From: a virus
Taxonomy: Duplodnaviria > Heunggongvirae > Uroviricota > Caudoviricetes
DNA length: 23,839 nucleotides
Virus record (IMG/VR): IMGVR_UViG_2671180458_000011
Direction: 5' to 3' (one strand)
Part shown: positions 1 to 23,839 of the stretch, one piece after another
How the letters are laid out: each line of letters starts with the position of its first letter
Position numbering within the stretch: position 1 is the first letter of the stretch
The notes under the pieces: model-generated
Seen by the model: only the letters and a program-made list of their open reading frames with translations
What the model was told of the DNA's origin: nothing
The model's database searches: none
Made by a program: the position numbers and the translations under genes

Positions 1-2
1 AA

Positions 3-1744: not shown

Positions 1745-1752
1745 GGTAAGGC

Positions 1753-2118: not shown

Positions 2119-2132
2119 TCAGGAAAAATAAA

Positions 2133-2609
2133 ATGACCACACGTAAGAAAAAAACGGCAGTTTCCGAGGCAGCCGTGATGGGGGCAATCCGGGAAGCACT
2201 TGAGGGGGCTGATCCACGCACTGCCGGGCTGACAGAGCAACTGGCAAAGGGATATGTGGATCTGCTTGATGGTCTGCCGTTTGGTGAGACCCGTGAATAT
2301 CGTGTCACGTTCCGGGAACTGACAGCGAAAGACAGTATTGACGCAGAAGCAGAAGCCGAGCGCGTGGTGGAGACAAACAATGGCCCGATGCTGATAGCGT
2401 CTCCGTCGTTACGCGGTGTTGCACTGCTGCGCCGTCAGATTGCCGCAGTGGGAGACATTGAAGGTCCGTTGTCACCCCGTCAGATTGGACAGTTAAGCGA
2501 GCGCGATCTCTCCCGCCTGATGGCAGCGGTCAGCCTGCTGGATACCGCGCTTGCCGGAAAGCTGGCAGCTGATCGGGGGCGATCAGGCGCAGTGTCGGGA
2601 TCAGATTGA
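2133..2609 (+). CDS. tail assembly chaperone (upstream ORF of the chaperone pair)
   Basis: ORF between tube and tape measure; ATG at 2133 (ORF track starts at GTG 2115, overlapping the tube stop). Position is the conserved tail chaperone slot. Confidence 0.6.
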   Translation: MTTRKKKTAVSEAAVMGAIREALEGADPRTAGLTEQLAKGYVDLLDGLPFGETREYRVTFRELTAKDSIDAEAEAERVVETNNGPMLIASPSLRGVALLRRQIAAVGDIEGPLSPRQIGQLSERDLSRLMAAVSLLDTALAGKLAADRGRSGAVSGSD

Positions 2610-2733
2610 AGAAGCGGCAATTATCCTGGGGATGGTGACAAAAAGTGGCCCGGAATGGGCGCTTAACCTCCCCCTGTCGCAACTTTACCGGCACTGCCGA
2701 CAGACAGAAAAAATCATCAGAACGAAGCAGTAA
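2551..2733 (+). CDS. candidate frameshift-extension ORF of the tail assembly chaperone
   Basis: Open +1 frame overlapping the last 59 nt of the chaperone ORF and ending 2 nt before the tape measure start; conserved G/GT-like arrangement in tailed phages. Confidence 0.35.
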   Translation: MPESWQLIGGDQAQCRDQIEEAAIILGMVTKSGPEWALNLPLSQLYRHCRQTEKIIRTKQ

Positions 2734-2735
2734 GT

Positions 2736-7255: not shown

Positions 7256-7859
7256 CGAAGTCATCAGCCGCCTTCTGGCCCCCGTAATGCGGGGTGTTCG
7301 TCTGCTGTTCGGGCGTGGTGTACTGACCGGCACAATGGACACGCTGAAAATCCAGAATGTGCAAATCACCGGTATGGATGGTGAAACCTTTGATGACGTT
7401 GAACGCCCCCAGCAGTACGGGCAAATCAGCGTCCCCCTGCCTGGTGCGGAAGTTTTTCTGGCCTGTGCTGGCGGACAACGGGATCAGGCCGTGGTGCTTG
7501 TGGTGGAAGACCGCCGCAGTCGCCCGACCGGACTTACCGCCGGAGATACCGGCGTGTATCACCATGAGGGGCACCGTATACGTCTGACAAAGAACGGCCG
7601 GATCATTGTGACCTGTAAGACGCTGGAGATTTACGCCGATGAAGGTGTTCAGGTGGATACACCGGAGGCTCACTTTACCGGTAATGTCACAGTGGATAAG
7701 AACCTGCATGTCAAAGGCAATGTGTCCATTGACGGCACCGGAAGATCACAGGGGACGTTCACGATGTCCGAAGCGGTTATTGCCGGGATCACCTATTCAG
7801 GTCATGTGCATCACGATAACGGTGAAGGCAGCAAAACGGGAGGACCAGAGAATGGCTGA
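7245..7859 (+). CDS. baseplate assembly protein V-like (Mu gp45-like spike)
   Basis: 204-aa ORF; stop overlaps the next start (ATGGCTGA at 7852-7859), a translational-coupling arrangement. Confidence 0.7.
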   Translation: MMNDEVISRLLAPVMRGVRLLFGRGVLTGTMDTLKIQNVQITGMDGETFDDVERPQQYGQISVPLPGAEVFLACAGGQRDQAVVLVVEDRRSRPTGLTAGDTGVYHHEGHRIRLTKNGRIIVTCKTLEIYADEGVQVDTPEAHFTGNVTVDKNLHVKGNVSIDGTGRSQGTFTMSEAVIAGITYSGHVHHDNGEGSKTGGPENG

Positions 7860-8289
7860 TATTGCTGTCGTCTGGGATCAGGGTTGCGGTTCCCTGCAAC
7901 TGAACGGCGCAGATCTTCTGACGGATAACAGCCTGCTGACTGCGGTCATTATTTCACTGTTTACGGACAGGCGGGCGCTGGATTCCGATGAAATCCCTGA
8001 CGGCACCCGTGACCGTCGGGGATGGTGGGGAGACAGTTTCCGGGAGCGCCCCGTTGGCTCCCGTCTCTGGCTGTTAAGCCGTGAAAAGACGCTGTCCTCC
8101 GTGGTCAGCCGTGCACAGGCCTATGCTGATGAAGCGCTGGCGTGGCTGCATAAAAGCGGTGCTGCCACATCCGTGGTATGTCATGCCATGCGTGTGGGGC
8201 ATGCTCGCCTTTCGCTTTCCGTGAAAATCACCCTGCCGGACGGAAGCAGACATCCGATGATTTTTTATGCTGATATGAAGGGGGAATGA
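7852..8289 (+). CDS. baseplate protein gp46-like
   Basis: 145-aa ORF from ATG 7852 (the ORF track's 7639 start is an upstream in-frame extension overlapping gp45); position between V-like and J-like genes. Confidence 0.7.
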   Translation: MADIAVVWDQGCGSLQLNGADLLTDNSLLTAVIISLFTDRRALDSDEIPDGTRDRRGWWGDSFRERPVGSRLWLLSREKTLSSVVSRAQAYADEALAWLHKSGAATSVVCHAMRVGHARLSLSVKITLPDGSRHPMIFYADMKGE

Positions 8290-9371
8290 TGCCTTATCAG
8301 CCCTTACCACTGGCGCAACTGATCACACAGACACAACAGGATATCAGCCAGCGCCTGCCCGGTTCGCAGCCGGGCGTGAATGAAACCACCCTGAATGCCA
8401 TTGCGTATGCACTCGCGGGTCTGTCAGCACAGGAGCATGAACATCTGGCCTGGATCTCCCGGCAGATAATTCCGACAGAAGCTGATGAAGCCGAACTCCT
8501 GAAACACTGCGCATTCTGGGGTGTCATCCGTAAACCGGCTTCCCGCGCTGACGGACCGGTACAACTGATGCTGACCACGGATGCAGGGATCACGGAAGGC
8601 GTACTCCTTCAGCGAAGCGATGGTGTTGTGTACCGCATCACCGGCTCTGCGACCGGAAAAGCCGGAACACTGAATGTTAATGTGGAGGCGGAAAGTGCGG
8701 GGCGCGCTGGAAATACCCCGACCGGAACCCGCCTGTCCTTTATCACGCCACAGGCGGGCATCAACCAGACAGCCACGGTCACCGGCACGGGACTCACCGG
8801 TGGTGCGGATGTGGAAACGGTGCCGGAGTTGCTGTCCAGGCTGGTATTCCGGGTACAGAACCCGCCATCAGGGGGAACACAGTATGATTTTGAACGCTGG
8901 GCACGGGAAGTACCGGGCGTGACGCGGGCATGGTGTAAGCCTGAATGGCCTGAGGCGGGTAGTGTTGGTGTGACTTTTGTTCAGGATAATAACCCTGACA
9001 TTTTCCCCGGAGAAGGTGATGTGAAGCGGGTGGCGGATTATATCCGCAGTCATGATGATCCGGCGACGGGCCAGCCCGTTGGTCAGCCACTTGGGCCGAC
9101 AATCAGCGTGTTTAAGCTGACCAATAAGCCGGTGGCGTTTGAGATCAGGATTGTACCCAAAACGCCGGAAAATCAGGCTGCCGTAAAACAGGCATTAACG
9201 GACCTGCTTTATAACGAATCGCGGCCGGGTGGACTTGTATTGCCTTCATCATTCTGGCGGGCTGTTGCAGGGGTGAAAGGACTGGAGGATTTTGAAGTTC
9301 GCAGCCCGCTGAAGTCCGTGATGGCCGGAGATACAGAGTTGCTGACCGTGGGGGAAATCACATGGCTGTAA
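8286..9371 (+). CDS. baseplate J-like protein (Mu gp47-like)
   Basis: 361-aa ORF overlapping both neighbours; size and position of baseplate J family. Confidence 0.8.
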   Translation: MMPYQPLPLAQLITQTQQDISQRLPGSQPGVNETTLNAIAYALAGLSAQEHEHLAWISRQIIPTEADEAELLKHCAFWGVIRKPASRADGPVQLMLTTDAGITEGVLLQRSDGVVYRITGSATGKAGTLNVNVEAESAGRAGNTPTGTRLSFITPQAGINQTATVTGTGLTGGADVETVPELLSRLVFRVQNPPSGGTQYDFERWAREVPGVTRAWCKPEWPEAGSVGVTFVQDNNPDIFPGEGDVKRVADYIRSHDDPATGQPVGQPLGPTISVFKLTNKPVAFEIRIVPKTPENQAAVKQALTDLLYNESRPGGLVLPSSFWRAVAGVKGLEDFEVRSPLKSVMAGDTELLTVGEITWL

Positions 9372-9922
9372 CCCTGACCCCGCATCAGCGTGCCCTGTTG
9401 CAGTTGCTGCCTGACGGGCTGGCATGGGATAAGCGGCCGTCATCCGTTCTTGCGGCTTTGTGCCTGGGCCTCAGTCATTCCACGGAGCGTGTTTCCTGGA
9501 CCGGTAACCAGATGCTGGCAGAACGTTTTCCTGATTCATCCCGTCTGCTGCTGGAAGACTGGGAGCGTTATCTGGGGTTACCGGAATGTGATATGACCGG
9601 CGCAACCATTCAGGAGCGTCAGCGTTATGCCGGGAATAAATACCGGATGAAACCCTCTCTTAACCGTGAATTTTATATCCGGTTTGCGGCAGAGTTTGGT
9701 TATGAAATAGATATTCAGCCATCACCGGATTCACAGTGGGTCAGTATTGTCACGATTAACAGTGAAACCGGCTACCGGAATATGAATGTGCTGGATGATA
9801 TTCTCACCCCGCTGCGTATTTATGAGGGTGGTGCGCTGGAATGTATTCTGAACCGTTATAAGCCTGCATGGCAGACGTTTATTTACGTGTATGCAAACAG
9901 CCATGAAGAGGAGACTATTTAA
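9362..9922 (+). CDS. tail protein gp48-like (DUF2313/YmfQ-like)
   Basis: 186-aa ORF directly upstream of the tail fiber gene; its stop overlaps the tail fiber ATG (TAATG at 9920-9924). Confidence 0.7.
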   Translation: MAVTLTPHQRALLQLLPDGLAWDKRPSSVLAALCLGLSHSTERVSWTGNQMLAERFPDSSRLLLEDWERYLGLPECDMTGATIQERQRYAGNKYRMKPSLNREFYIRFAAEFGYEIDIQPSPDSQWVSIVTINSETGYRNMNVLDDILTPLRIYEGGALECILNRYKPAWQTFIYVYANSHEEETI

Positions 9923-10833
9923 TGTTTCATGTTGATAATAATTCCGGCGTGGCGAATATGCCTGCGCTGGCACCGGCGCAGAGTAATACCACCACCTGGT
10001 TTACCGAAGGTGACGGACAAAAAGGTATCAGCTGGATTGGTCAGGACTGGCTGAATATTCTCCAGGCCGAACTGCTGAATATTCTGGCTGAAGCCAGTAT
10101 TCAGCCGGATAAGGCGCAGTTAAACCAGCTTACGCTGTCCATTAAAGCCATTATCGCTGCGAATGCCTTTTCCCGGAAAAACAACCTGAAAGAAATTGCT
10201 GATGCCGGTGCGGAAGCCCAGCGTCTTGCCCGTAGTTATCTTGGTCTTGGGGCGCTTGCCACAAAAAACAGTCTTGGTCCCGGTGACGTTAATGCTCTGG
10301 CGAAGGATCAGAACCTTGCCGACCTGGAGAATGCGGGAACCGCCCGTAATAATCTGGATGTTTACAGCAAAAGCGAAGGTGATAACCGTTACCTGCGCAG
10401 GGAGCAGAACGGCGCAGACATTCCGGATAAAGGCGCTTTTATCGATAACGTCGGTTTACGGGAAACGGTAAATAAGGCTGCTGATGCCCTGCCATCGGGT
10501 GGAACCGCCGTGGCAGCAAACAGACTCGCCACCCCAAGAAATATTAATGGCGTTCCTTTTGACGGAACGCAGGATATCAACATCACGTCAGGAATGACGC
10601 AGTCAACCGCAGATGGCCGGTATGTACAGAATGTTCAGCTTGGAGCACAGAGCTATCATTCACCCGGAGGCAATGAAATATCATGGAATTACAGCGCACC
10701 TTCCGGTTGTATGCTTTCCGGTATTAACGTGCAGGAAACCGGCTCCCGGTCTGCGGACAATATCGGTGGGGTCTATTATCGCCCGGTTCAGATTTATATT
10801 AATAATGCCTGGAGAACGGTAAGTTCAGTGTAA
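9922..10833 (+). CDS. tail fiber protein: constant part (9922 to about 10451) fused to the currently in-frame variable part Sv (about 10465-10833)
   Basis: 303-aa ORF; a gix-like crossover site lies inside it at 10439-10464; its C-terminal tail resembles that of the inverted cassette on the opposite strand. Confidence 0.8.
   Translation: MFHVDNNSGVANMPALAPAQSNTTTWFTEGDGQKGISWIGQDWLNILQAELLNILAEASIQPDKAQLNQLTLSIKAIIAANAFSRKNNLKEIADAGAEAQRLARSYLGLGALATKNSLGPGDVNALAKDQNLADLENAGTARNNLDVYSKSEGDNRYLRREQNGADIPDKGAFIDNVGLRETVNKAADALPSGGTAVAANRLATPRNINGVPFDGTQDINITSGMTQSTADGRYVQNVQLGAQSYHSPGGNEISWNYSAPSGCMLSGINVQETGSRSADNIGGVYYRPVQIYINNAWRTVSSV
10439..10464 (+). other. gix-like recombination site, left (inside tail fiber gene)
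   Basis: TTATCGATAACGTCGGTTTACGGGAA: 26-bp site with two imperfectly symmetric 12-bp halves around a 2-bp core, closely resembling the Mu gix / Hin hix architecture. Confidence 0.7.
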
Positions 10834-10843
10834 ACCACAGAAA

Positions 10844-10862
10844 AGGGTGCTGAATGCACCCT
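10844..10862. terminator. stem-loop between convergent tail fiber and tfa genes
   Basis: 7-bp stem AGGGTGC/GCACCCT with 5-nt loop, between tail fiber stop (10833) and tfa stop (10868); T-rich stretch follows on the + strand. Confidence 0.35.
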
Positions 10863-10867
10863 CTGAA

Positions 10868-11440
10868 TTATTCCGGTTTTTCCGGCCAGGGAATCGCCTG
10901 GTAATGCCCCTCACTGGCAATATCATTAAAGTGCATTTCTTTAAGCTGTCGGATATACGCCATCCAGCGCGTCAGCTGTAATTTATTTTCATCGCTAATC
11001 ATGTCCAGTTTTAATTCTGTTTTCCAGTCATCCACGGTTTCGTTGGCTTCCTGGAGCAGCGATGAGCGACGCTTTTCAGCAACCGTCTTCCAGTTTACCG
11101 GCACCTTTGATATCAGGCCATCAGAAAACTGCCAGTTACCGTCAATATTCACACCTTCCGGCAGTTCGTCCACTTCAACAACAGTAAAACCTGCCGGATA
11201 TAAAGCAGAGACATCTTCAGCAACAGAGCAGATAATACCCGTTACAGGCGAAATACAGAGTTTGTATTTCTTTGTGAAAAGCGGGATAGATTCATAAAAA
11301 TCCCTTCCGTCCTCACTCTGGAAATACTGAACATCCTCACCATAGGGTTTGTCTTTCGGGTAATATCGTTTGACATTAATCAGTTGCATAAACATCACCA
11401 TGTAAATCAATGATAAAAACAGGAATAATACTATCGCCAT
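10868..11440 (-). CDS. tail fiber assembly protein (Tfa/U'-like), paired with the inverted Sv' cassette
   Basis: C-terminus ends in the Tfa-type motif (IPWPEKPE). The first 17 codons are strongly hydrophobic, so the real start may be the internal ATG at 11389. Confidence 0.65.
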   Translation of the reverse strand: MAIVLFLFLSLIYMVMFMQLINVKRYYPKDKPYGEDVQYFQSEDGRDFYESIPLFTKKYKLCISPVTGIICSVAEDVSALYPAGFTVVEVDELPEGVNIDGNWQFSDGLISKVPVNWKTVAEKRRSSLLQEANETVDDWKTELKLDMISDENKLQLTRWMAYIRQLKEMHFNDIASEGHYQAIPWPEKPE

Positions 11441-11510
11441 ATACAGGCAATGCTTGTCTGAAATAACGCATATTTCAGATGCTGGCTGCTGTGTGCTATG
11501 CCCCCGTTAA

Positions 11511-11877
11511 TTAAATACTTGCAGCGGATACCCAATGCCCATTAATACAATATTGTATCTGTCTGTAATAAACACGGTCATCACCACCACGCATTTCCCA
11601 GTCTCCGTTAGTCTTAAAACCGGTAATCACATTTCCTGATGACAGGGAGTAATTATATTCCAGTCCGCCGCTTAATGCCTGCGCTCCCAGTCTTACCCCT
11701 GTAACATAACGCTGATTGGCCGTTGATTCCGGCATTCCTGACGTAATGTTTATATCCTGCGTGCCGTCAAAGGCGACACCATTGATTCTGCGGGCATTTG
11801 CCAGCCTGCTTGCTGCAACAGCCGTACCGTTTGATGGCAGGGCATTCGCGGCCCTGTTTACAGTATCCCGTAAACCG
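11511..11877 (-). CDS. alternative tail fiber C-terminal cassette (Sv'), promoterless in the current orientation
   Basis: Minus-strand frame open from the right gix-like site to the stop at 11511; C-terminus resembles that of the + strand fiber. Confidence 0.6.
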
Positions 11878-11890
11878 AGGTTTCAGGGAT
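11865..11890 (-). other. gix-like recombination site, right (inverted relative to left site)
   Basis: ATCCCGTAAACCGAGGTTTCAGGGAT; the 12-mer CCCGTAAACCGA is the exact reverse complement of TCGGTTTACGGG in the left site; sits just upstream of gin as in Mu. Confidence 0.7.
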
Positions 11891-11944
11891 GCCGTATATC
11901 TGCTTTAAAAGGCCTTTCCACCTCTTTTTAAGGAAGGTAAATAC

Positions 11945-12505
11945 ATGCTGATTGGCTATATACGCGTATCAACAAATGACCAGAACACAGGTTTACAAAG
12001 AAATGCGCTGGAATGTGCAGGATGTGAGCAGATTTTTGAAGACAAAATGAGTGGTAAAACGACACAGCGGCCGGGACTGAAGCGGGCACTGAAGAAACTA
12101 AAACCCGGTGACACGCTGATGGTCTGGAAACTGGACAGGCTGGGGCGCAGTATGCGCCACCTTGTTGCGCTGACAGATGAATTACAGCAACAGGGGATAA
12201 ATTTTCGTAGTCTTACTGACAACATTGATACGTCAACCCCCATGGGGCGCTTCTTTTTTCACATAATGGGTGCGCTGGCAGAAATGGAGCGTGAATTAAT
12301 TGTCGAACGGACACGGGCTGGTCTTGCAGCTGCCCGTGAAAGGGGACGAACCGGCGGCAGACCCCGCCGTCTCACGCAGGAACAATACGAGCAGGTCGGG
12401 CGTTTACTGGCCGGGGGTGTCAGTCGAAGACAGGTGGCACTTATTTTTGATATCGGTCTTTCAACCCTTTATCGTTATTATCCTGCGAGCGTTTCGGAAA
12501 AATAA
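11945..12505 (+). CDS. gin: serine DNA invertase (Gin/Pin/Hin family)
   Basis: 186-aa protein beginning MLIGYIRVSTNDQNTGLQRNALECAGCEQIFEDK, near-identical in pattern to Mu Gin including the catalytic-serine N-terminal domain and C-terminal HTH; AAGGAAGG Shine-Dalgarno upstream. Confidence 0.9.
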   Translation: MLIGYIRVSTNDQNTGLQRNALECAGCEQIFEDKMSGKTTQRPGLKRALKKLKPGDTLMVWKLDRLGRSMRHLVALTDELQQQGINFRSLTDNIDTSTPMGRFFFHIMGALAEMERELIVERTRAGLAAARERGRTGGRPRRLTQEQYEQVGRLLAGGVSRRQVALIFDIGLSTLYRYYPASVSEK

Positions 12506-12604
12506 GACGCTCTCTTTGTTGGGCCTTTACTGAATTAACGCAAAATGGCGTTTATCGGTCTGTGGATATGATAATTCAGTTTATTCAGGAACAGGCTGAT
12601 TATT

Positions 12605-14644
12605 ATGACGTCCAAATGGGTTCAACTATCATCAATGCCCGGAAACTTTACTGTTAAAGTTTCCGGTGGTACAGCGGCATTTCTTGAGGCTCCCTTTCCT
12701 CCGGCCGAAACAAAAGGAGGAATGACATTTGCTGACTGTCTCATCAGTTTTAATACACGGGATTGCCTGTGGGTAAGGCCAGTATCCGGTGATCCGAGTG
12801 TGGAAATTACCGGAGCGGGTATTGGTGCGGTCATTCCGTTAAGTGCTGATGTTGCCGGTACTGCTGAACCGTCAGACTGGGATAATGCTGAAACACATAC
12901 CCGTCCGTCAGGAAATGAAACTGCTTCCAGCTCCCCTTCCTGGTATTACGTGGTGGTTCTTGCTGGTCAGTCAAACGGTATGGCTTACGGTGAAGGTCTG
13001 CCACTGCCGGAGACATATGACCGCCCCGAACCGCGTATTATGCAGTTAGCCCGTCGCAGTACAGTCACGCCGGGAGGTAAAGCCTGTCAGTATAACGACA
13101 TCATTCTGGCCGACCACTGTCTGCATGATGTGCAGGATATGAGTGGAAAAAATCACCCGAAAGCGGATGTGGCTAAAGGGCAATATGGCACCGTGGGTCA
13201 GGGGCTTCACATTGCCAAAAAACTGCTGCCGTTTATTCCGGCAGATGCGGGGATTCTGCTGGTTCCCTGCTGCCGTGGTGGTTCTGCATTCACGGCGGGT
13301 GCTGACGGCACGTACAGTGACAGCACGGGTGCTTCAGAGGACTCAGCCCGCTGGGGTGTGGATAAGCCGCTGTATAAGGACTTAATCAGCCGGACAAAAG
13401 CGGCACTGGCGAAGAACCCGAAAAACCGCCTGCTTGCTGTGGTGTGGATGCAGGGCGAGTTTGATATTGATGCGAAGCCGACGGAGCATTCTGCGCTGTT
13501 TCTGGCGATGGTGGAAAAATTCCGCGCAGACCTGGCTGAACAGGCGGAACAGTGTACCGGTGGCAGTGCTGCTGGCGTTCCGTGGATTTGTGGTGATACC
13601 ACGTATTTCTGGAAACAGAAAAACGAACAGGCATACCAGGCAATCTATGACGGCTACAAAAATAAAACAGATAAAAACATTCATTTCGTCCCATTAATGA
13701 CAGATGAAAATGGCGCGAATGTACCCACCAACAATCCGGCAGAAGACCCGGATATTGAATCCATTGGTTATTACGGCTCAACGTGGCGTAACAGTGCCGC
13801 CACCTGGACATCTGCGGACCGGGCCAGCCATTTCAGTTCATGGGCACGTCGTGGGATTATTTCCGACCGTCTGGCCACGGCAGTTCTGACTCATGCGGGG
13901 CGAACCACAGTAAAAGCCGATGTTCCATCTTCTGAAACTGAAGCACCAGTGCCGTCACCTTCAGAAACTGAAGCAGTAACCACAACACTGCTGTCTTACC
14001 GTGTCAGTGAGTCAGAAGGAAATCTGAAAGCCCAGGGCTGGGAGCCGGCTGGCGGTAAAGCTGAAATTATCAGTGATGCAGGAGGCACAGGTGGTAAGGC
14101 AATGAAACTGACCAAGGAAACAGGTAAATCATCCTGGTATCTGGATCATGATGCCGGTACTGGTGCTGAACTGCTGAAAAATGGTGGTTTAATCAGTTGT
14201 CGTTTTAAAGTACCGGGCGACCTGGTGGCAAACCAGTATGTCATGGCGCTTTACTGGCCGGTTTCCTCTCTGCCGCAGGGTGTCACCCTGACAGGGGATG
14301 CAGGGAATAATCTGCTGGCATCGTTCTACATCCAGACAGACGCAAAAGACCTGAATGTGATGTACCACAATGCAAAAGTGGCAACAAATAACCAGAAACT
14401 GGGAACCTTTGGTGCATTTGATAATGAATGGCATACGCTGGCCTTCCGTTTTGCAGGAAATAACAGCCTTCAGGTTATTCCGGTTATTGATGGTCAGGAT
14501 GGTGCCGCGTTTACCCTGACGCAGTCACCAGTAGGAACTTTCCCGGTGGACAAACTCCGCGTAACGGATATCACAAAAAATGCAACTTACCCGGTGCTGA
14601 TTGACAGCATTGTGGTGGAAGTGAAAAAAGCGGTAACAGAATAA
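12605..14644 (+). CDS. SGNH/SASA-type esterase with C-terminal lectin-like domain (NanS-p-like sialate O-acetylesterase candidate)
   Basis: 679 aa; GQSNG block at about residue 120, WMQGEFD block and a D-x-x-x-H block consistent with SASA/DUF303 esterases; Pro/Ser/Thr/Glu-rich linker then about 230-aa beta-rich domain. Family call from motif recognition only. Confidence 0.5.
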   Translation: MTSKWVQLSSMPGNFTVKVSGGTAAFLEAPFPPAETKGGMTFADCLISFNTRDCLWVRPVSGDPSVEITGAGIGAVIPLSADVAGTAEPSDWDNAETHTRPSGNETASSSPSWYYVVVLAGQSNGMAYGEGLPLPETYDRPEPRIMQLARRSTVTPGGKACQYNDIILADHCLHDVQDMSGKNHPKADVAKGQYGTVGQGLHIAKKLLPFIPADAGILLVPCCRGGSAFTAGADGTYSDSTGASEDSARWGVDKPLYKDLISRTKAALAKNPKNRLLAVVWMQGEFDIDAKPTEHSALFLAMVEKFRADLAEQAEQCTGGSAAGVPWICGDTTYFWKQKNEQAYQAIYDGYKNKTDKNIHFVPLMTDENGANVPTNNPAEDPDIESIGYYGSTWRNSAATWTSADRASHFSSWARRGIISDRLATAVLTHAGRTTVKADVPSSETEAPVPSPSETEAVTTTLLSYRVSESEGNLKAQGWEPAGGKAEIISDAGGTGGKAMKLTKETGKSSWYLDHDAGTGAELLKNGGLISCRFKVPGDLVANQYVMALYWPVSSLPQGVTLTGDAGNNLLASFYIQTDAKDLNVMYHNAKVATNNQKLGTFGAFDNEWHTLAFRFAGNNSLQVIPVIDGQDGAAFTLTQSPVGTFPVDKLRVTDITKNATYPVLIDSIVVEVKKAVTE

Positions 14645-14649
14645 AAAAA

Positions 14650-14678
14650 TCCCGCCGGTCATGATATGGCTGGCGGGA
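14650..14678. terminator. stem-loop after the esterase gene; canonical intrinsic terminator only when read on the minus strand
   Basis: Stem TCCCGCC/GGCGGGA (extendable with wobble pairs) with A7 run immediately 5' on the + strand, which is a U-tract 3' of the hairpin on the minus strand. Confidence 0.4.
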
Positions 14679-14790
14679 GCTACCTAACCCATAAAGGAAA
14701 ATAAAAATACTCCCGAAGGAGTGGTTATCAGTCGCTTCGATGTTTTTACCCGATAACGAATTATGTAGTCAATATCAAAGGTAAGGTTAT

Positions 14791-14973
14791 ATGACATTCG
14801 TTCATACAATGCTGCTTTATTTCTGCGCAGTGGTCAGTGCGTTATATCTGGTGAGCGGCGGTTATAAGGTCATCAGAAATTATATTCGCCGTAAAATTGA
14901 TGATGCGGCAGCTGAAAAACTCAGTAAAACAGCACAGGCACCGTCATCCCCAAACGACCCGACCCCGCTCTGA
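14791..14973 (+). CDS. small predicted membrane protein (60 aa), unknown function
   Basis: Single N-terminal hydrophobic helix then charged tail; AAAGGTAAGG Shine-Dalgarno-like sequence upstream; AT-rich foreign-looking DNA. Confidence 0.4.
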   Translation: MTFVHTMLLYFCAVVSALYLVSGGYKVIRNYIRRKIDDAAAEKLSKTAQAPSSPNDPTPL

Positions 14974-15008
14974 TAACGGGGCAATATACCTGCAAAAGGA
15001 GAATATTC

Positions 15009-15254
15009 ATGCCAGAGATTAAAGGCACGGTTACTGAAGAGCTTGTCAAACAGGCACTTTATTCTGAAGAAGTGAACCGCGTGCTGAAGGCGCAGGTTCG
15101 CAAGGATTTTGAGGCACAAATCGACGCATATGTTGATGAAGTGCTGGCCCGAATGGTTGGCCATTCTCCGGCTGAAAACAGCACGGAGAATGAGCCTCAA
15201 GCCGTAGAGCAACCAGAGCCGGTTCAGCCCGGAACTGACGGTACTATGATGTAA
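15009..15254 (+). CDS. small acidic protein (81 aa), unknown function
   Basis: AAAGGAGA Shine-Dalgarno 7 nt upstream of ATG; helical-looking N-terminal half and acidic Pro/Glu-rich tail; followed by a hairpin. Confidence 0.45.
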   Translation: MPEIKGTVTEELVKQALYSEEVNRVLKAQVRKDFEAQIDAYVDEVLARMVGHSPAENSTENEPQAVEQPEPVQPGTDGTMM

Positions 15255-15263
15255 CAATACCGA

Positions 15264-15283
15264 CCGGCAGGTTTCCCTGCCGG
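15264..15283. terminator. hairpin between convergent small genes
   Basis: CCGGCAGG-TTTC-CCTGCCGG, 8-bp stem with 4-nt loop, between the + gene ending 15254 and the minus gene ending 15293. Confidence 0.4.
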
Positions 15284-15292
15284 GTGAATTTG

Positions 15293-15463
15293 TTAATGCA
15301 CGTTTTGTGTACTTTCCCTCCGGGGAGAACAGGCAGGACATATCAGCATCCTGAAACAGGACGCATTTTGGGGTTTGTATGTCTTGCCATTTTGAGATCG
15401 AGAACGGCGATAGATGAGCTGTAAGGGAGTCTTACAGGCAGGGCAAACAGGCTCTTTATCCAT
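15293..15463 (-). CDS. small zinc-ribbon protein (56 aa, two CPAC motifs), unknown function
   Basis: Minus-strand ATG at 15463 preceded by AGGAGA with 8-nt spacing; Cys-Pro-Ala-Cys at residues 7-10 and 41-44. The ORF track's longer version (to 15487) starts upstream of the Shine-Dalgarno sequence. Confidence 0.4.
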   Translation of the reverse strand: MDKEPVCPACKTPLQLIYRRSRSQNGKTYKPQNASCFRMLICPACSPRRESTQNVH

Positions 15464-15565
15464 GATAAAGATCTCCTTTTTATGCATCTCTGCTTTACAG
15501 GAGACCGGGGAATATCATAGGATACGCCACGAGCTCGAAGTAAAGCATTGATGCGAATTTGTTCC

Positions 15566-15595
15566 AGGTCCAGATAGCTGTAACTATCTGGACCT
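15566..15595. promoter_or_regulatory. perfect 12-bp inverted repeat with 6-bp spacer (candidate operator or hairpin)
   Basis: AGGTCCAGATAG ctgtaa CTATCTGGACCT in the divergent intergenic region between the zinc-ribbon gene and com. Confidence 0.4.
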
Positions 15596-15643
15596 CCCTT
15601 TATGTAGTATCCTGTTGATTTGAAACATACTACATATACGCGC

Positions 15644-15821
15644 GATCCTACCTTCACTGTATAAAAAGTCAATAAAATGATCATTTTATGATCGTTTTCA
15701 CCACCTAAGTCTTCGTTTTCTTTAAGTAAATAATCACCGCCCTGAATCATTGTTGATGACTTTTCAATCTATTTGTTGTATCAATTAAACAAATCGAATC
15801 GATCGTTTTTGTCGATCGATT
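15644..15821 (+). promoter_or_regulatory. GATC-dense mom-operon control region (candidate Dam-methylation-sensitive promoter region)
   Basis: Five GATC sites in about 175 bp (15644, 15679, 15690, 15801, 15814), including a 9-bp inverted repeat AATCGATCG n7 CGATCGATT at 15797-15821 just upstream of com. Confidence 0.45.
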
Positions 15822-15864
15822 GCATGAGAAAGGCATCAACAACAAAGCAGGAGGTTATGCGGCC

Positions 15865-16065
15865 ATGTATCGAAACATACGGTGCCGACACTGCAATAAG
15901 CTACTGGCACGGGCCAGTTTCAGTTATCTGGAAGTAAAATGTCCGCGCTGTAAAACCCTCAATCAAATCACATCTCCGAGCGCCACAGAGCACCCCACAT
16001 ACACAAGGAAATCCTGTCGTGGGGAACAGAAAGCAAGCCACATCCCGTATCATCAGCACGCCTGA
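15865..16065 (+). CDS. com: Com-like zinc-finger translational activator of mom
   Basis: [14 protein letters not shown]...VKCPRCKTL...EHPT matches the Mu Com four-cysteine pattern; AGGAGG Shine-Dalgarno 10 nt upstream of ATG 15865 (ORF track starts at TTG 15820); 3' end overlaps the next gene as in Mu. Confidence 0.7.
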
Positions 16066-16756
16066 ACTTATTCGCTATAACGACAATATCGTTGGTTATG
16101 GCTCCCGTGAGTTGCGGGTTGAGACAATAAGTTGCTGGCTGGCCAGACTGGTCATCGTCAATAAACATTACAGCCACCGTTTCGTAAATAACTCCTACCT
16201 TCATCTGGGCATATTTTCAGAACGGGAGCTGGTTGGCGTAATGCAATGGGGCTATGCCCTTAATCCAAACAGTGGTGCACGCGTCGTAACGGGCACGCGG
16301 AACCGTGAATATATGGAGCTTAACCGGTTATGGCTGCATGACTGTATGCCGAGAAACTCCGAATCAAGGGCAATCAGTTACGCGCTCAAGCTAATCAGGC
16401 AGCTTTATCCGCAGGTACAGTGGGTTCAGTCGTTTGCAGATGAGCGTTGTGGCTGTCTTGGTGTCGTGTATCAGGCAAGCAATTTTGATTATGTAGGCAG
16501 CCACGAATCAACATTCTATGAACTTGATGGCGAGTGGTATCACGAGATTTGCAGGAATGCCATTAAACGAGGCGGACAGCGAGGTGAACATCTGAGGGCT
16601 AATATCGACAGAGCCAGTGTTCATAAATTCCGTCAGTTTCGTTACATCCGGTTTCTGAACAAGAGGGCCAGAAAACGCCTCAACACAAAGCTATTCAAAG
16701 TCCAGCCTTACCCAAAACCACAAACAGTTAAAACTGGTTTAAAAGAGAGTGAGTGA
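16019..16756 (+). CDS. mom: Mom-like DNA modification protein
   Basis: 245-aa ORF (GTG start) beginning inside the 3' end of com, the characteristic com-mom overlap; last gene before the prophage right end as in Mu. Called from context, not from remembered sequence. Confidence 0.6.
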
Positions 16757-18044
16757 ACGCTTAAAAACTCATTCTAAAACCCAAAAGAAAAGCGCCGATT
16801 TAGTATCAAATAAGTTGCGTATCGGCGTTTTTCAGCGGTATCAAATGAAATGCAAATCGGTATCAAAAAAATCGCCGCGCTATAATAAGCAGCTCAGAGC
16901 TGCCAATAAAGTCACTAACGTGCTGGATACAGAACTCACATCAGCCCGTGCCGCGGAACGTAAGGCCCAGCAAACTGCACAACAAGGTATGAAGGAAGAA
17001 GAGCGAGAGTTGTGCGCGTCACATTTTCCAGTGGTGACTTTGGAGCAATTGCCTGACATTCGCGATTTAGAACGTCAACATGAGCGGGGAATTCAGCATG
17101 AAATTGAAAGAGTTAAAGCTGAACTACATCGACTGAACATTGAGTTGACCAAACGTATGTCTGAAGCCAAACGTGTGGATACCGGGGCGCTCGTTGAGGC
17201 AGGGGCTGATTTGGACGATATTACTGTTTATTTACAGCGTTTGCAGGAACTGACCGAAGAAGCCCTGCCGGAAAAGCTCAATCGCTTCCTTGATTATCTT
17301 AACCGTTCATCCGATGACGGCGTAACACAACTGCTTAGCCATATTGAGCATGAGGTGCTGGTGATTGAGGAGCGCCTCAATGAACTCAATGAAACTATGT
17401 TCAGGGTTGATTTTCAGCCGTATCGCTACCTGCGTCTGGATACCAAAAAAGTTGTCCATGAAAGCCTGCGCACGCTTGAAAAAGCACAGCGTCAGCTAAA
17501 TGCCGCCCGATTTGTTGATGATAATGGCGAGAGCTATTATAAGGCTTTGCAGATACTGGTGGCGCAATTGCGGGATGCTTGTGAACGAAACCGTACCCTG
17601 GGAGCAAAAGCGCTACTGGATCCCCGTTTTCGACTGGAGTTCGCCGTATCGGTGATGGATCGTCAGAGCGGAAATGTGATTGAGTCTCGTACCGGCTCAC
17701 AGGGTGGTAGCGGTGGAGAAAAAGAGATTATCGCTTCTTACGTGTTAACAGCTTCACTTAGCTACGCACTTTGTCCTGCGGGGAGCCGTTATCCGCTTTT
17801 CGGTACCATTATCCTTGATGAAGCCTTCTCCCGCAGTTCTCATGCGGTGGCGGGTAGGATCATTGCCGCGCTTAGAGAATTTGGCTTACATGCAGTATTT
17901 ATCACCCCCAATAAGGAAATGCGCCTGCTGCGTGACCATACTCGTTCGGCGATTGTTGTCCACCGGCGCGGTCAGAATTCCAATATGGCTTCTCTGAGCT
18001 GGGAAGAGCTTGAACGACACTACCAGCGACGGGGGAACGCGTAG
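16749..18044 (+). pseudogene. jetC 3' fragment: C-terminal half of a Wadjet SMC-like ATPase, truncated by the prophage
   Basis: Contains signature-like GSGGEKE, Walker B IILDEAF and an H-loop His but no Walker A; the first 48 codons or so (16749-16896) are a Lys-rich read-through of phage-end sequence; coiled-coil-like sequence begins about 16897. Confidence 0.6.
16800..16896 (+). repeat. prophage right-end repeat array (candidate transposase-binding sites) ending in CA
   Basis: Three direct copies of GTATCAAA at 16803, 16838 and 16860 plus ATCGGCG/ATCGCCG motifs; GCGTTTTTC at 16825-16833 resembles part of the Mu R-end; terminal CA at 16895-16896. Confidence 0.4.
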
Positions 18045-18045
18045 G

Positions 18046-19194
18046 ATGTATTCCCCAGATGAATTGCGTGAAAAGCTTGCCCGGCAGTGGGATAGCGCAA
18101 AACTTCGGGCTGAACGCTTACTGTCCCCCGGTAACTGGCCGCTCTGCCTGCCTATTGGTAAACCTTCCACGAAAATATTTGCAGAGCAGACTCAGCGCGT
18201 TTTGCAGCACGTACAGCGATGGAGGCAAGTTGCGGTTGGGCACGTGGAATGGGAAGCGGTGAGTTATCGGGCAAGTGATACACCAGTATTAATGCCGTTG
18301 CGCTGGATTCTGAATAGCCCTTCTGAGTGGATCAACGCCGCTGCGGATCCGGTTGTGAGCCGGGAATTTCGCTTGCTGGAAGGAATTATTGAACAAGTTA
18401 ATCCCATTTTTCACCCGCTGTTGGTAAAGCATCGCTCTCTCTGGCGGCACAAAGATCCGCAGGGCGTCATCAGCGCCGCCACGCTGGCCTGCCGATTAGA
18501 GCCGGGCTGCGCAAAAGGGCTGCCGTTAAGATTGCTTTCCGGGCAAGGAGTGGATACCAAATTTATCGAGAATAATATTTCGTTATTAACCCGACTGTTA
18601 GACGTGCGGTTTTCAGGAGAAGCCAGCGAGCAGGGATTAACAACTTTTCTTGATGCTTTTGATGAGTCCAGTCACTGGGTTTTAGTTGTACCATTATCAC
18701 CCGGCTTACTTCCTTTTAAAAAATGCCGGGTAACAACGGCGGAACTGGCAGAAACAACATTACCTGCGTCGCAAGTACTGGTGGTTGAAAATGAGCAGTG
18801 TCTGCATCATCTTCCAGCATTATCTGACACTATCGCGATTTTAGGCTGTGGCCTGGACGTGCAATGGCTATCCAGTTCTGTTCTGGATGAAAAACGCGTT
18901 GCTTATTGGGGGGACATGGATAGCTGGGGATTACTGATGCTGGCGAGAGCCAGGCGCTGTCGTCCGACGCTTGATGCCCTGCTCATGAACCGTGAGTTGT
19001 TTGAGCAGTATGCCAGTCATAGCGCCGTTCCAGAACCGGTCATAGCGAAGGAAGCTGTACCTGATGGCTTGCTTAACGAAGAGGCCGATTTTTATCGCTA
19101 CTTAACCCGTTTACCGTGTGGTCGTCTGGAGCAGGAGTTTTTGCCAGTGGGGATTGCGGAAGAGGTGCTTCTCAGGTGGGGAAAAGAGAGTTAA
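18046..19194 (+). CDS. JetD-like Toprim-domain protein (Wadjet subunit D)
   Basis: ATG at 18046 two nt after the jetC stop (ORF track starts at TTG 18010); about 382 aa with VVENE and YWGDMD motifs typical of the DUF2220 Toprim-like domain. Confidence 0.65.
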   Translation: MYSPDELREKLARQWDSAKLRAERLLSPGNWPLCLPIGKPSTKIFAEQTQRVLQHVQRWRQVAVGHVEWEAVSYRASDTPVLMPLRWILNSPSEWINAAADPVVSREFRLLEGIIEQVNPIFHPLLVKHRSLWRHKDPQGVISAATLACRLEPGCAKGLPLRLLSGQGVDTKFIENNISLLTRLLDVRFSGEASEQGLTTFLDAFDESSHWVLVVPLSPGLLPFKKCRVTTAELAETTLPASQVLVVENEQCLHHLPALSDTIAILGCGLDVQWLSSSVLDEKRVAYWGDMDSWGLLMLARARRCRPTLDALLMNRELFEQYASHSAVPEPVIAKEAVPDGLLNEEADFYRYLTRLPCGRLEQEFLPVGIAEEVLLRWGKES

Positions 19195-19552
19195 AAAAGT
19201 CATGCTTGCTCTGGAAGGTTATTTACGCGGTATTTTGTAGTGGTTGTTGCGAAAGTCTGCGTTGATGGTCCTGATACCTTACCGGGTAGAGGGACTTTCC
19301 ATCAGTCAGTTTAGATACTGTGGCAACTGTCGCCTTTAGGTGGACAAATGCATAAATTATTAAACTATTAAATTTCTTGTTTTCAGGCAGCAGAGAGAAG
19401 GTATATCAGAGGGTACTGAGGTGTATAAACGTCACGAACATCCGTGAAAAGGCGAAAAAAACCAGCCAATAGATAATGCTTTGCAATGGCCAGAAATCTA
19501 CCGTAGCCAGAAAGTGAAAAAGCCCCGCTTTGCAGCGAGGCCTTATGAATAG

Positions 19553-19575
19553 TGGTGCCCGGACTCGGAATCGAA
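19553..19575 (-). repeat. 3'-terminal 23 nt of tRNA-Phe (att-type direct repeat); not a functional tRNA
   Basis: Minus strand reads TTCGATTCCGAGTCCGGGCACCA, matching the 3' end of E. coli tRNA-Phe (T-loop, acceptor strand, CCA); sequence further upstream does not form a tRNA body. Confidence 0.65.
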
Positions 19576-19747
19576 GATTTCATTTATCATATTGATATTA
19601 ATCTCGTTTATTTGGTTTGATGAAAAATGTACCCTCTCTTGTACCCTCGGTCCCTTCTGGTGGTTTTTATGAGAACAAGTAGATCAAGATTTTTGTCATC
19701 AGAACACGTGTATTTTTGTGGGTTTTATTCCTGAGTTTTATTCCTTT

Positions 19748-20590
19748 TTATATCGCTAACGCTCCGGGATAGTGCTTAGCAATAATATCATTAAGCCTGT
19801 CAACCAGCTCTGGTTTCCTGAACGTGATGTGCGCGGAGCCCTTCTTAAAGTATCTGATGCTGAACATCTCATCTTCATAGTCCTCTTTACCCTGAACAGA
19901 CTGGACGTGATCATCCAGATGAATAGTGATGTTTTCCCGGTTGTCGGGGATCGGTTTGCCGCTGAACAGGTGTAGCATTCTTTCCAGATCAGCAAGTCGA
20001 TCTGCCTGTTGCCCGGTGATAAGATGAAAGCCCCACCGGTCCCACCTCATCAGGTTGTTGACGATAATTTTACTGCCAAATTTGCAGGGGCAATTGGTTT
20101 TGTAATTCCAGCTCAACCCTCTGAAGACGTTGATCACCCCCCGCTCAAACACCTCATCCTTATTCTGGTGCAGTTGTTCAAATGTGCTCAGAATGTTCGC
20201 TTCACTGATTTCCGGAAAATTATCGTATTCCAGTGACCGGTACCATGTATCACGGGCCTGTGCATCCATTAAGGAAAGCATCCCGGAACGTTGCATCAGG
20301 TCACGCCAGATTTCGCGATCGAGATTGCGTGTGATGGCTTTCATTGCGGTTTCAGGTTTCTCCATCAGCCAGCAACCGCAGTGAAAATTCTGTTTCATGG
20401 CCCAGTCCAGTGCGGTTTTACCGCCAATGCTTTCTGTCATTGCTGAGATTTCAGCCAGTTGCCGGATAAGTGTGTCGATTTGCAGCAGTGTACTCTTTCG
20501 TACAGCCAGAATGTGGAGGATACTGGTTGAGCAGATAACGTCCGTATGCCAGTTGACAACTTCCGGACGGGAGACTGTGATATCAGACAT
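19748..20590 (-). CDS. conserved hypothetical protein (280 aa; possibly DUF4942 family)
   Basis: Long ORF at the extreme island end next to the att repeat; family name is a tentative recollection. Confidence 0.5.
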   Translation of the reverse strand: MSDITVSRPEVVNWHTDVICSTSILHILAVRKSTLLQIDTLIRQLAEISAMTESIGGKTALDWAMKQNFHCGCWLMEKPETAMKAITRNLDREIWRDLMQRSGMLSLMDAQARDTWYRSLEYDNFPEISEANILSTFEQLHQNKDEVFERGVINVFRGLSWNYKTNCPCKFGSKIIVNNLMRWDRWGFHLITGQQADRLADLERMLHLFSGKPIPDNRENITIHLDDHVQSVQGKEDYEDEMFSIRYFKKGSAHITFRKPELVDRLNDIIAKHYPGALAI

Positions 20591-20674
20591 AATCGATATT
20601 CCTTTTTGCAGATAAATGAAAACGCCAGCCCTGTTCAGGCTGGCGTCAGTGGAATGAAGTCTGGTGAGTGAGAG

Positions 20675-20872
20675 TCACCGGTTCTGGTGCAGAAGCTGCA
20701 ACTGGCGCAGTGTACGGATATCTTCCCTGGCCTGTTCAATGCAGGGCAGCAGTGCTGCCGAATCCGTTTTATCCTCATCGTTGTCAAAGATAATTCCCGA
20801 TTCGCAGTCGATATTGTCCTGCAGCCACGCAATCAGAATATCCAGCGCTGTTTCCGTGGTTAATGATTTCAT
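20675..20872 (-). CDS. small conserved protein (65 aa; YeeW-like, possibly DUF957)
   Basis: ATG at 20872, 11 nt after the stop of the upstream gene; the ORF track's longer version (to 20917) overlaps that gene. Confidence 0.45.
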   Translation of the reverse strand: MKSLTTETALDILIAWLQDNIDCESGIIFDNDEDKTDSAALLPCIEQAREDIRTLRQLQLLHQNR

Positions 20873-20883
20873 GTTGTTTCTGG

Positions 20884-21372
20884 TTACCAGTTGAAAGTGG
20901 GTAAACCCGGCAGGCATTCAGCGCTGGCATCCAGATGAATGAGACTGACGCCATAACGTCGGGTAAGTGTGACAACCAGACGGCGGAACGTTTTTGACAG
21001 CCCCAGGCGTTTAAGCCGCAGAACCGGGTATGACCACGCATCGGTACGTAACAGATATCCGCTACCTGTGAAATGAATCCATTCTGATTCGCCGGTGTCA
21101 TTCGTCTGATGTGACAGCGAGTACAGCCAGGCGTTGTCCTTTGCAGTGATATGCGCGGTACTGCAGCGTATGCCGGTCAGGGCAGCAAATGGTGGCGTGC
21201 AGTCTGTTGAGACCCGGTCAGATTCATCAACAACACGAAGGGAGTGGCCATTGTCGCAGACCACGTTAATCAGTTCAGCGAGATTAACACCATCGACGTC
21301 AACGACAATTCGTCCCATGTTCAGCGTCTGCACGTTAACGCTGTCTGCTTCCAGCGTCAGAGTCAGTTTCAT
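20884..21372 (-). CDS. conserved hypothetical protein (162 aa; possibly DUF5983), translationally coupled to cbtA
   Basis: Start overlaps the cbtA stop (ATGA-type overlap at 21369-21372). Confidence 0.5.
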
Positions 21373-21746
21373 TGTTTCGCCTCCGGATGCTTCCCCTGGG
21401 TAATGTTATTTACCGTTCTGTAATTGTCGCGGGTCATCAGGCCGGTCGCCCTGCGAGCCCGGAGGATATCGATGCTGTTTATTAACTGAGAACGGGTACA
21501 GGCATTGAATTCCGGCTGGTCGGTACGCACCAGTGCGTATTTTTCAACAAGAAAGTTCACTGCATCGCACAGTGAAATGCCAGCTTCAATATGCTGCTCA
21601 ATCACACGTTCATCGGCAAACGGTGTGTCATTCAGTGTGAGGCCATAATGCTGGTCCAGCAGTCGGATGAGCAGTGTCTGCCAGATGGTGACGGGAGACG
21701 GGCAGCGAGATACCTCCCGTACATGTGTGTCGGATAATGTTTTCAT
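21369..21746 (-). CDS. cbtA: CbtA/YeeV-family toxin (type IV TA, cytoskeleton-targeting)
   Basis: [14 protein letters not shown]...[48 protein letters not shown] matches the CbtA/YeeV/YkfI/YpjF family; start taken at the internal ATG 21746 (ORF track 21848 extends into the antitoxin gene). Confidence 0.85.
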
Positions 21747-21792: not shown

Positions 21793-22167
21793 TTATGAGG
21801 TGGTTGCGGGTGCCTGTGCCGGATAAACAGCCAGATAAACGTAACCACAGGAGCCGAGGGTGTCGGCTTCGCAGGTCAGCCCTTTTGCATACAGCGTGAC
21901 GGTATGCTGATTTCGGGGATTCAGTTCACCGCTGGTGAGCATGAGTTCCAGTTGTTTCATCAGCAGCGGAAAGGCCTGGTCCAGATGGTATGCATCTGCG
22001 TCGCTGAAGCGGCCGCTGATACCGGCGCGGTCGGCAAGGTAATGCAACCGGTTACCCTCCTGCACCAGACGGGCGCCAAAACAGGGTTTCACTGTGCAGG
22101 GAAGCCCCCACCAGGGGCGGTCGTGATTGTCGTCGGGATGAGTTATCCCGGAGAGTTTGTCTGACAC
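21793..22167 (-). CDS. cbeA: CbeA/YeeU-family antitoxin (type IV TA)
   Basis: 124 aa with [16 protein letters not shown]...[19 protein letters not shown], the YeeU/YfjZ/YafW family pattern; directly upstream of the toxin. Confidence 0.85.
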
Positions 22168-22329: not shown

Positions 22330-22551
22330 TCAGTTCAGGGTGACGCTCATCAGCCGGACATACGGGCCAAAACTGTCCTTATGGCGTTCAGCAAACACGG
22401 CCAGCACACCGGGAATATCCTGCACTTCACGACCGGTATACGCTTCAGTGCTGCCGTGCCAGCGGTATTTGCCGGTACAGAAAGGAAAAAGACGGGATGC
22501 CGGATGTTGTTGGTGAATACGCATGGCTTCACCACGGGTGATGATTTTCAT
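22330..22551 (-). CDS. YeeT/YpjJ-like protein (DUF987)
   Basis: 73 aa, MKIITRGEAMRIHQQHPASRLFPFCTGKYRWHG pattern of the YeeT family; conserved position between RadC-like and antitoxin genes. Confidence 0.8.
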   Translation of the reverse strand: MKIITRGEAMRIHQQHPASRLFPFCTGKYRWHGSTEAYTGREVQDIPGVLAVFAERHKDSFGPYVRLMSVTLN

Positions 22552-22613: not shown

Positions 22614-23105
22614 TTAAAGCAGACCATGTTCGGCAAAGGAGAAAACCTGGTTGCCACCGACTATCAGATGGTCCGGCACCCGGATATCCACCAGGCCCAG
22701 TGCCTGTACCAGACGTTCCGTGATAAGGCGGTCTGCCTTGCTGGGTGTGACTTCACCGGACGGGTGATTGTGCGCCAGCACCACGGCAGCGGCATTGTGG
22801 TACAGGGCGCGTTTAATCACTTCCCGGGGATGGACTTCCGTGCGGTTGATGGTGCCGGTGAAGAGGGTTTCACCGGCAATCAACTGATTCTGGTTATTCA
22901 GATACAGCACCCGGAATTCTTCACGCTCCAGTCCCGCCATGTTCAGAATCAGCCATTCCCGTGCCGCACGGGTGGAGGTGAAGGCCACGCCGGGTTCATG
23001 AAGATGGCGGTCCAGGGTTTTCAGGGCCCGCAGAATGAGACTGCGCTCACCGGGCGTCATCTCTCCGGGCAGAAAGGAAAGTTGTTGCATTGTGCTTCTC
23101 TCCAT
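22614..23105 (-). CDS. RadC-like JAB-domain protein (YeeS/YfjY/YkfG family)
   Basis: 163 aa with the HNHPSG JAMM-type motif; likely start at the internal ATG (MQQLSFLPGE). Confidence 0.85.
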   Translation of the reverse strand: MERSTMQQLSFLPGEMTPGERSLILRALKTLDRHLHEPGVAFTSTRAAREWLILNMAGLEREEFRVLYLNNQNQLIAGETLFTGTINRTEVHPREVIKRALYHNAAAVVLAHNHPSGEVTPSKADRLITERLVQALGLVDIRVPDHLIVGGNQVFSFAEHGLL

Positions 23106-23591
23106 TCAGTCGATGATGCGCATAATGGCGCTGCATTCCGGATGCTGCAGGGCGTAATCCCGCAACCGGTAATAATGGACCGTCATGGCATAACACTCCG
23201 TACGACAGGCATGATGACTGTACGTCATCAGACAGGCGGCAATGCCGGCGGCTTCCGGGCTCATTTCAGCGCGGTTACCGTTCATGGCATTGAACAGTAC
23301 CCAGTTTTCGCCATCATCGTCATCCGGTTCGGGGGCCATAAATGCGCCACCGTTGTTCAGTGTGTACAGATTCCAGATACCACCGCAGTAGTCTTCGCAA
23401 AGACGGTCCATCCAGCCGAAGATACGGGGCTCCAGGGTCACCCACTGTGGAATGAGGCCAAAATGCTGCGGCCAGAAGCTGATGCGCTGTTCATCAGGGA
23501 CTATGGTGGCAACCAGCTGAGACTGGTCATTCCCTGATGCAGCGGTTACGGAAACAGAAGATGTGGTGGAATTATGTGAAATGGTTTTCAT
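23106..23591 (-). CDS. antirestriction protein (YfjX/YafX/KlcA-ArdB-like)
   Basis: 161 aa; sequence pattern of the CP4-type antirestriction family; immediately upstream of the RadC-like gene as in CP4 islands. Confidence 0.75.
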   Translation of the reverse strand: MKTISHNSTTSSVSVTAASGNDQSQLVATIVPDEQRISFWPQHFGLIPQWVTLEPRIFGWMDRLCEDYCGGIWNLYTLNNGGAFMAPEPDDDDGENWVLFNAMNGNRAEMSPEAAGIAACLMTYSHHACRTECYAMTVHYYRLRDYALQHPECSAIMRIID

Positions 23592-23645: not shown

Positions 23646-23839
23646 TCAGCCCACGCCCCCCAGCCGCGTTTCCCCCCTCACCCACCATGCGCGGCTGAGC
23701 TTACTGTCAGTGTCAATGCCGTGAATCGCACGGGTATGGATACGTTTCCCTTTAGCCCTGCGCCCTGAAATTCCGCCTTTCAGCATCTTCTCCTGAATGG
23801 TCTGATAAGCACTCCACAGCTCCTTCCCGTACTCCTCCC
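23646..23839 (-). CDS. 3' end of an unidentified CDS running off the window edge (partial)
   Basis: Minus-strand frame open from the window edge to a TGA at 23646-23648, translating ...EEYGKELWSAYQTIQEKMLKGGISGRRAKGKRIHTRAIHGIDTDSKLSRAWWVRGETRLGGVG; not in the ORF track because its start is outside the window. Confidence 0.4.
   Translation of the reverse strand, partial: EEYGKELWSAYQTIQEKMLKGGISGRRAKGKRIHTRAIHGIDTDSKLSRAWWVRGETRLGGVG

Follow-up and report, generated by a model that had tools for sequence, protein, structure and literature searches.

Islands inserted at the 3' end of the tRNA-Phe gene pheV have been described in Escherichia coli. In a survey of these elements, termed GI-pheV (PLoS Genet 2024, PMC11537424), the attR repeats are 23 or 19 bp long and the P4 integrase gene is conserved; no gene other than intP4 is conserved across all 41 islands, which range in size from 10 to 110 kb, and their flu/yee modules are shared with CP4-44 (PMC11537424). 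The Locus of Adhesion and Autoaggregation (LAA) of LEE-negative STEC is an 86,256-bp island at pheV (Sci Rep 2017, PMC5539235), with an imperfect 23-bp repeat of the 3' end of pheV on either side. Module IV, at the distal end of LAA, contains agn43 and yee-type genes and is, according to its authors, widespread and not diagnostic (PMC5539235). Because structures of this sort are described in both papers, the junction reported here is of a kind already known, and we are highly confident that it is an ordinary one: the attR of a pheV island with a distal end of the CP4-44/LAA module IV type.

The DNA that we analyzed (hereafter the window) is a 23,839-nt stretch of IMG/VR virus record IMGVR_UViG_2671180458_000011. 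From left to right it comprises part of a Mu-like prophage, a disrupted jetC, jetD, the pheV terminator, an attR, and the distal end of a pheV island. The attR core lies on the minus strand at positions 19553-19575, where the island has its outer, distal junction. The plus strand reads TGGTGCCCGGACTCGGAATCGAA, and its reverse complement, TTCGATTCCGAGTCCGGGCACCA, matches positions 54-76 of the 76-nt K-12 pheV (L005 1867-1942) at 23 of 23 positions, CCA included, just as an earlier note on this DNA had read it. Chance origin of the 23-mer can be rejected, because it is unique in the window even when up to three mismatches are allowed, and none of 100 dinucleotide shuffles yielded any match. The three bases 5' of it are ..ATC in the window and ..TGG in the tRNA, and the fragment is therefore a direct repeat of exactly the last 23 nt of pheV.

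The same note had claimed that no tRNA body lies upstream of the fragment, and had proposed a tRNA scan of the full contig; our scan covered the window. ARAGORN found no tRNA genes in the whole window, comparison of the window with Rfam gave no match at the gathering score, and a blastn-short search with the whole tRNA-Phe matched positions 54-76 alone. The complete cloverleaf of a functional tRNA gene was thus not found in the window by either ARAGORN or Rfam, which rejects an overlooked complete tRNA, and the 23-mer is not part of a complete gene that had been misread.

The insertion breakpoint was located by comparing the flank of the repeat (window positions 16700-19600) with 5,426 complete E. 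coli genomes. Several of these match the window from position 16885 to exactly 19575 (query end 2876) at 99.9-100% identity, and a tRNA-Phe is annotated at that point. In MB53 the gene order is glcA, jetD, intact pheV (minus strand), yqgA, speC, and in FHI_NMBU_11 it is glcA, jetA, jetB, jetC, jetD, pheV (minus strand), yqgA. Alignment of MB53 with the window shows that the two are identical across the terminator and the 23-mer, after which MB53 continues into the tRNA body and the window continues into the island. Because identity breaks just past the 23-mer, sequence up to 19552 is the original downstream flank of pheV and sequence from 19576 onward is inserted DNA. The island-side gene content is missing from MB53 and FHI_NMBU_11, and these two genomes are empty attB sites at pheV. 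The earlier note's strand reasoning and its assignment of the island and chromosomal sides hold, in that island-free genomes match the window up to 19575 and no further.

The chromosomal side of the junction retains what follows pheV in island-free genomes. The native rho-independent terminator of pheV is present on the minus strand at 19510-19544, with its stem-loop at 19544-19519 followed by a T tract, and is identical to that beside intact pheV in MB53; it is situated directly 3' of the CCA, and the last island gene, which is encoded on the same strand, ends about 200 nt upstream of it. This terminator is part of the 358 chromosomal nt that separate jetD from the pheV site (19195-19552), a stretch whose sequence is the same as in island-free genomes.

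On the island side of the repeat are accessory genes of the type carried by mobile elements (DUF4942, CbtA/CbeA, RadC, and antirestriction genes). A non-coding terminal stretch (19576-19747), which LAA-like and related pheV islands share at 99-100% identity, is followed by genes that all lie on the minus strand. The island's last gene encodes a DUF4942 protein (19748-20590), and to its right are genes for a 65-aa DUF957 protein (20675-20872; named from the annotation in relatives), a DUF5983 (YeeW-like) protein (20884-21372), a CbtA-family toxin (21369-21746), a CbeA/YeeU-family antitoxin (21793-22167), a DUF987 (YeeT-like) protein (22330-22551), a RadC/YeeS-like JAB-domain protein (22614-23090), and an antirestriction protein (23106-23591). 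The window ends within a DUF932 gene, of which it has the 3' part (23646-23839); in L013, a contig of the same clone, this gene is at 16898-17716 (offset 6748). L013 continues past the window with DUF905, IrmA, and YeeR (YeeR_C) genes and then an Ag43 autotransporter, and is collinear with the island end of strain STEC1587, with 98.3% identity over 8.5 kb. The description of the island as CP4-like in the earlier note is apt, since a CP4-44-like module is present; 84-97% nucleotide identity to K-12 CP4-44 yeeS-yeeT-cbeA-cbtA-yeeW makes the label a fair one for this module, and the Pfam domains of these collinear homologues agree.

Two complete genomes show what the far end of such an island looks like. 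In CX12, where the jetD flank is that of the window, the junction bears a repeat derived from pheV (L006 10726-10747) and a mosaic island of about 49 kb follows, at the far end of which are a 421-aa tyrosine recombinase (874531-875796) and an intact tRNA-Phe (875993-876068) on the strand of the repeat, followed by yqgA. In STEC1587, the island end is 99.7% identical to window positions 19542-20700, and about 86.5 kb later there is an integrase, then pheV (minus strand, the strand of the repeat), and then yqgA. The CX12 and STEC1587 integrases both have Arm-DNA-bind_3, Phage_int_M, and Phage_integrase domains, which is the P4-type architecture. The annotated products of the STEC1587 island include Ag43, ShlB/FhaC and hemagglutinin-repeat proteins, an S6 peptidase, Iha, and an Ail/Lom protein. 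We note that at the attL of CX12 and STEC1587 (L008 ~10900-10993 and L012 ~37790-37881, respectively), the CCA of intact pheV is followed by the island's own terminator, AATTCATATCAACGGACCTCCACGGAGGTCCGTTTTT; this hairpin (GGACCTCCACGGAGGTCC then TTTTT) replaces the native pheV terminator, which remains at attR.

The clone from which the window derives has been sampled many times, as a GTG-start open reading frame that spans the prophage/jetC junction (16749-18044) is present in 80 blocks of NCBI draft assemblies; no record was found for the two ATG-start versions of this open reading frame or for a TTG-start jetD open reading frame. Loci L013-L018 bear the identical 23-mer and context. All draft contigs of this clone that bear the junction end at or before Ag43, and the expectation that the island of this clone likewise ends in an integrase and an intact pheV therefore comes from the relatives. 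The earlier note had set a limit of about 50 kb for finding them, which is too tight, because the distances in the relatives are 49 kb (CX12) and 86.5 kb (STEC1587). For assembly and annotation of the clone, the practical consequence is that the contig runs into a pheV island whose end with the integrase and pheV is probably about 50-90 kb further right.

That these contigs stop short of the far end leaves some room for a fossil junction, in which the island is degenerate and IS-mediated deletion or inversion has removed or relocated the far-end integrase, the intact pheV, or both, so that the 23-mer would be an old boundary with no functional partner. Islands at pheV are mosaic and IS-rich, and one-third of the surveyed GI-pheV islands are without one of the repeats (PMC11537424). 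However, the losses in that survey affect attR and not the end with pheV and the integrase, with intP4 kept throughout the 41 islands (PMC11537424); both complete relatives, CX12 and STEC1587, have kept integrase and pheV; and the perfect repeat seen here does not suggest decay. We therefore regard decay of the far end as improbable.

A tandem arrangement, with the 23-mer as the internal junction of two pheV islands and the sequence to its left belonging to the second of them, appears less probable still. There is a precedent in STEC1585 (L019 18640-20120), in which a perfect 23-mer and the same island end form an internal junction, the left neighbor being the P4-type integrase of a second, subAB-carrying island. 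In the window, however, the left neighbors are the terminator, spacer, and jetD that adjoin intact pheV in island-free genomes, with glcA beyond, and there is no integrase to the left of the fragment within the window. Moreover, when the interval from glcA to the Wadjet genes of CX12, FHI_NMBU_11, and JNEC-KY202 was searched for another repeat derived from pheV, nothing above chance emerged, which argues against a tandem island and equally leads us to reject the Wadjet genes as part of an older island. Insertion at pheU, which encodes the same tRNA as pheV and which the 23-mer by itself cannot separate from it, is scarcely credible, since the left flank is that of intact pheV (the glcA-jet-pheV-yqgA-speC region of at least nine complete genomes) and K-12 pheV sits between yqgA and yghD; of the two genes offered in the earlier note, pheV stands and pheU falls on these same flanks.

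The interval between glcA and pheV is itself variable among E. coli strains (compared in L001, L002, L003, L006, L007, and L010). It is occupied by type II secretion system (T2SS) genes in K-12 and STEC1587, by jetABCD in CX12, and by jetD alone in MB53, and other variants have T6SS or Flp-pilus remnants with IS1 and a jetD fragment. The ~290 nt that adjoin pheV (window positions ~19285-19552) are common to the non-K-12 types.

The reading that accounts for the junction is that the 23-mer is, very probably, the attR of an island of the GI-pheV kind that a P4-type tyrosine integrase placed in chromosomal pheV, at its 3' end. The earlier note had called the fragment the footprint of integrase-mediated insertion into tRNA-Phe, and the empty sites together with the occupied relatives CX12 and STEC1587 favor this; that an integrase made the insertion, and was active in doing so, is what the relatives imply. 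An island attP carrying a copy of the tRNA 3' end would have recombined with pheV, acting as attB, to give two products. The proximal product (attL) would consist of the intact tRNA and then the integrase, to the right of the window. The distal product (attR) consists of a copy of the last 23 nt of the tRNA, still attached to the terminator and chromosomal neighbors of the original pheV, which in this lineage are a Wadjet jetABCD locus between glcA and pheV. The retained pheV terminator, lying as it does downstream of the minus-strand island genes, now probably ends their transcription.

The Wadjet locus is chromosomal and lies between glcA and pheV. The window contains jetD at full length (18046-19194, plus strand; DUF3322 and JetD_C domains), the same gene that stands beside intact pheV in MB53 and FHI_NMBU_11, preceded by a 3' fragment of jetC (16885-18044, plus strand) comprising the last ~386 of 1095 codons and including the SbcC Walker B motif. 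The window does not contain a complete jetABCD; jetD is intact, jetC is truncated by the prophage end, and jetA and jetB do not lie within it. The earlier note had put a Wadjet remnant on the chromosomal side, within 360 bp of the island junction; the position is right (jetD ends at 19194, 358 nt away), but the remnant has nothing to do with the island. Elsewhere, jetC is an intact open reading frame of 1095 aa in CX12 and FHI_NMBU_11, and all four Wadjet open reading frames are intact in CX12, in which the locus is apparently complete, whereas jetA has an internal stop in FHI_NMBU_11 and JNEC-KY202. RefSeq splits jetC (L006 5925-9212; L010 4873-8160) into two partial coding sequences with a gap between them, although the open reading frame is unbroken over 1095 aa, and the split is probably an annotation artefact.

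The truncation of jetC is the work of the Mu-like prophage. Positions 1-16884 (plus strand) are the right half of an O157 Sp18-like element, from the tail sheath to com/mom, and are 99.6% identical to a Mu-like prophage of O157:H7 strains (tail sheath, tape measure, baseplate, and com/mom). The right end of the prophage lies in jetC, with the junction at 16884|16885, at about codon 710 of 1095. Because it is the prophage that cuts jetC there, disruption of the Wadjet locus is independent of the island, and since the open reading frame across this junction recurs in the 80 draft-assembly blocks, the disrupted jetC is fixed in a widely sampled clone; the insertion may thereby have disabled the Wadjet anti-plasmid system in that clone.

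Among complete E. coli genomes, the whole window has a single match with coverage of at least 80%, and we reject this match as an artefact in which separate pieces have been joined. The pieces are an Sp18-like prophage near yeeZ (upstream of sbcB) and the CP4-44 locus nearby, an arrangement that differs from that of the window.

The prophage has further features of its own. An invertible tail-fiber segment (10447-11882) is bounded by 179-nt inverted repeats and adjoins a Gin-type serine recombinase gene (11945-12505), and the segment is in the opposite orientation in L013 and L018 of the same clone. Near the right end of the prophage (16803-16884) there are three spaced copies of a GTATCAAA(T/A) motif, which, by analogy with the ends of Mu, are probably transposase-binding sites.

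The repeat in the window is perfect, and this is uncommon among related junctions, most of which have lost 1 nt of the GGG run. In CX12, STEC1587, and strain 100416, an ungapped search allowing up to four mismatches had suggested that the repeat was absent, but we reject this, as alignment shows that attR is present with a 1-nt deletion, CC for CCC on the plus strand (L006 10726-10747, L001 8018-8039, and L002 20661-20682). The GI-pheV paper lists many strains with the same deletion (GG-CACCA; PMC11537424). Among 116 complete genomes with this island end, the 23-mer is undeleted in two: SCU-171, in which it lies beside yghD, and STEC1585, which is the only one to match the window perfectly over all 120 nt. 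The deletion is common to islands with different chromosomal flanks, which suggests that it may travel with the island arm, with a crossover 3' of the GGG run.

A perfect repeat might matter for stability of the island, since a single mismatch can cut excision by orders of magnitude (PMC11537424). More speculatively, and we regard the combination as rather unlikely, the perfect attR may confer unusual excision competence and may serve as a secondary attB for the stacking of further pheV islands, as the tandem array of STEC1585 suggests, in a background in which the Mu-like insertion may have disabled Wadjet. Otherwise this is a textbook tRNA-island junction that raises no new question, and its use is a mild one: the repeat is perfect, which bears on island stability, and the Wadjet locus at this site is chromosomal and owes its disruption to a prophage, not to the island.

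The locus resembles the GI-pheV islands in that attR copies the last 23 nt of pheV, that the P4-type integrase (intP4) of its relatives adjoins the intact tRNA, and that the content is modular with a flu/yee module at the distal end. It differs from them in two respects. First, the 23-bp-type attR sequences shown from Table 1 of the survey all depart from pheV by substitutions or by a 1-nt deletion (GG-CACCA), in contrast to the 23/23 match here. Second, the chromosomal neighbor is a Wadjet locus and not the K-12-type yghD/T2SS genes, and the term 'Wadjet' is absent from the paper (PMC11537424).

Insertion at pheV, the 23-bp repeats of the pheV 3' end, and a module-IV-like distal end are also shared with LAA. 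The 86.5-kb island of STEC1587 fits LAA in its size and annotated products, and it is to the distal 8.5 kb of this island that the clone is 98.3% identical; the window itself shows the module-IV-like end alone, and modules I-III (hes, iha, lesP, tpsA/B) would lie outside it. LAA has a yghD flank and imperfect repeats, in contrast to the jetD flank and perfect repeat described here. With K-12 CP4-44 (flu-yeeR-yeeS-yeeT-cbeA-cbtA-yeeW), the locus shares its gene order, and nucleotide identity is 84-97% across the yeeS/yeeT, cbeA, cbtA, and yeeW region, with YeeR and Ag43 following beyond the window in L013. Beyond what CP4-44 contains, there are DUF4942 and DUF957 genes in the window, which also has a clean tRNA-derived attR, whereas the annotation of the K-12 CP4-44 region shows neither a tRNA gene nor an integrase.
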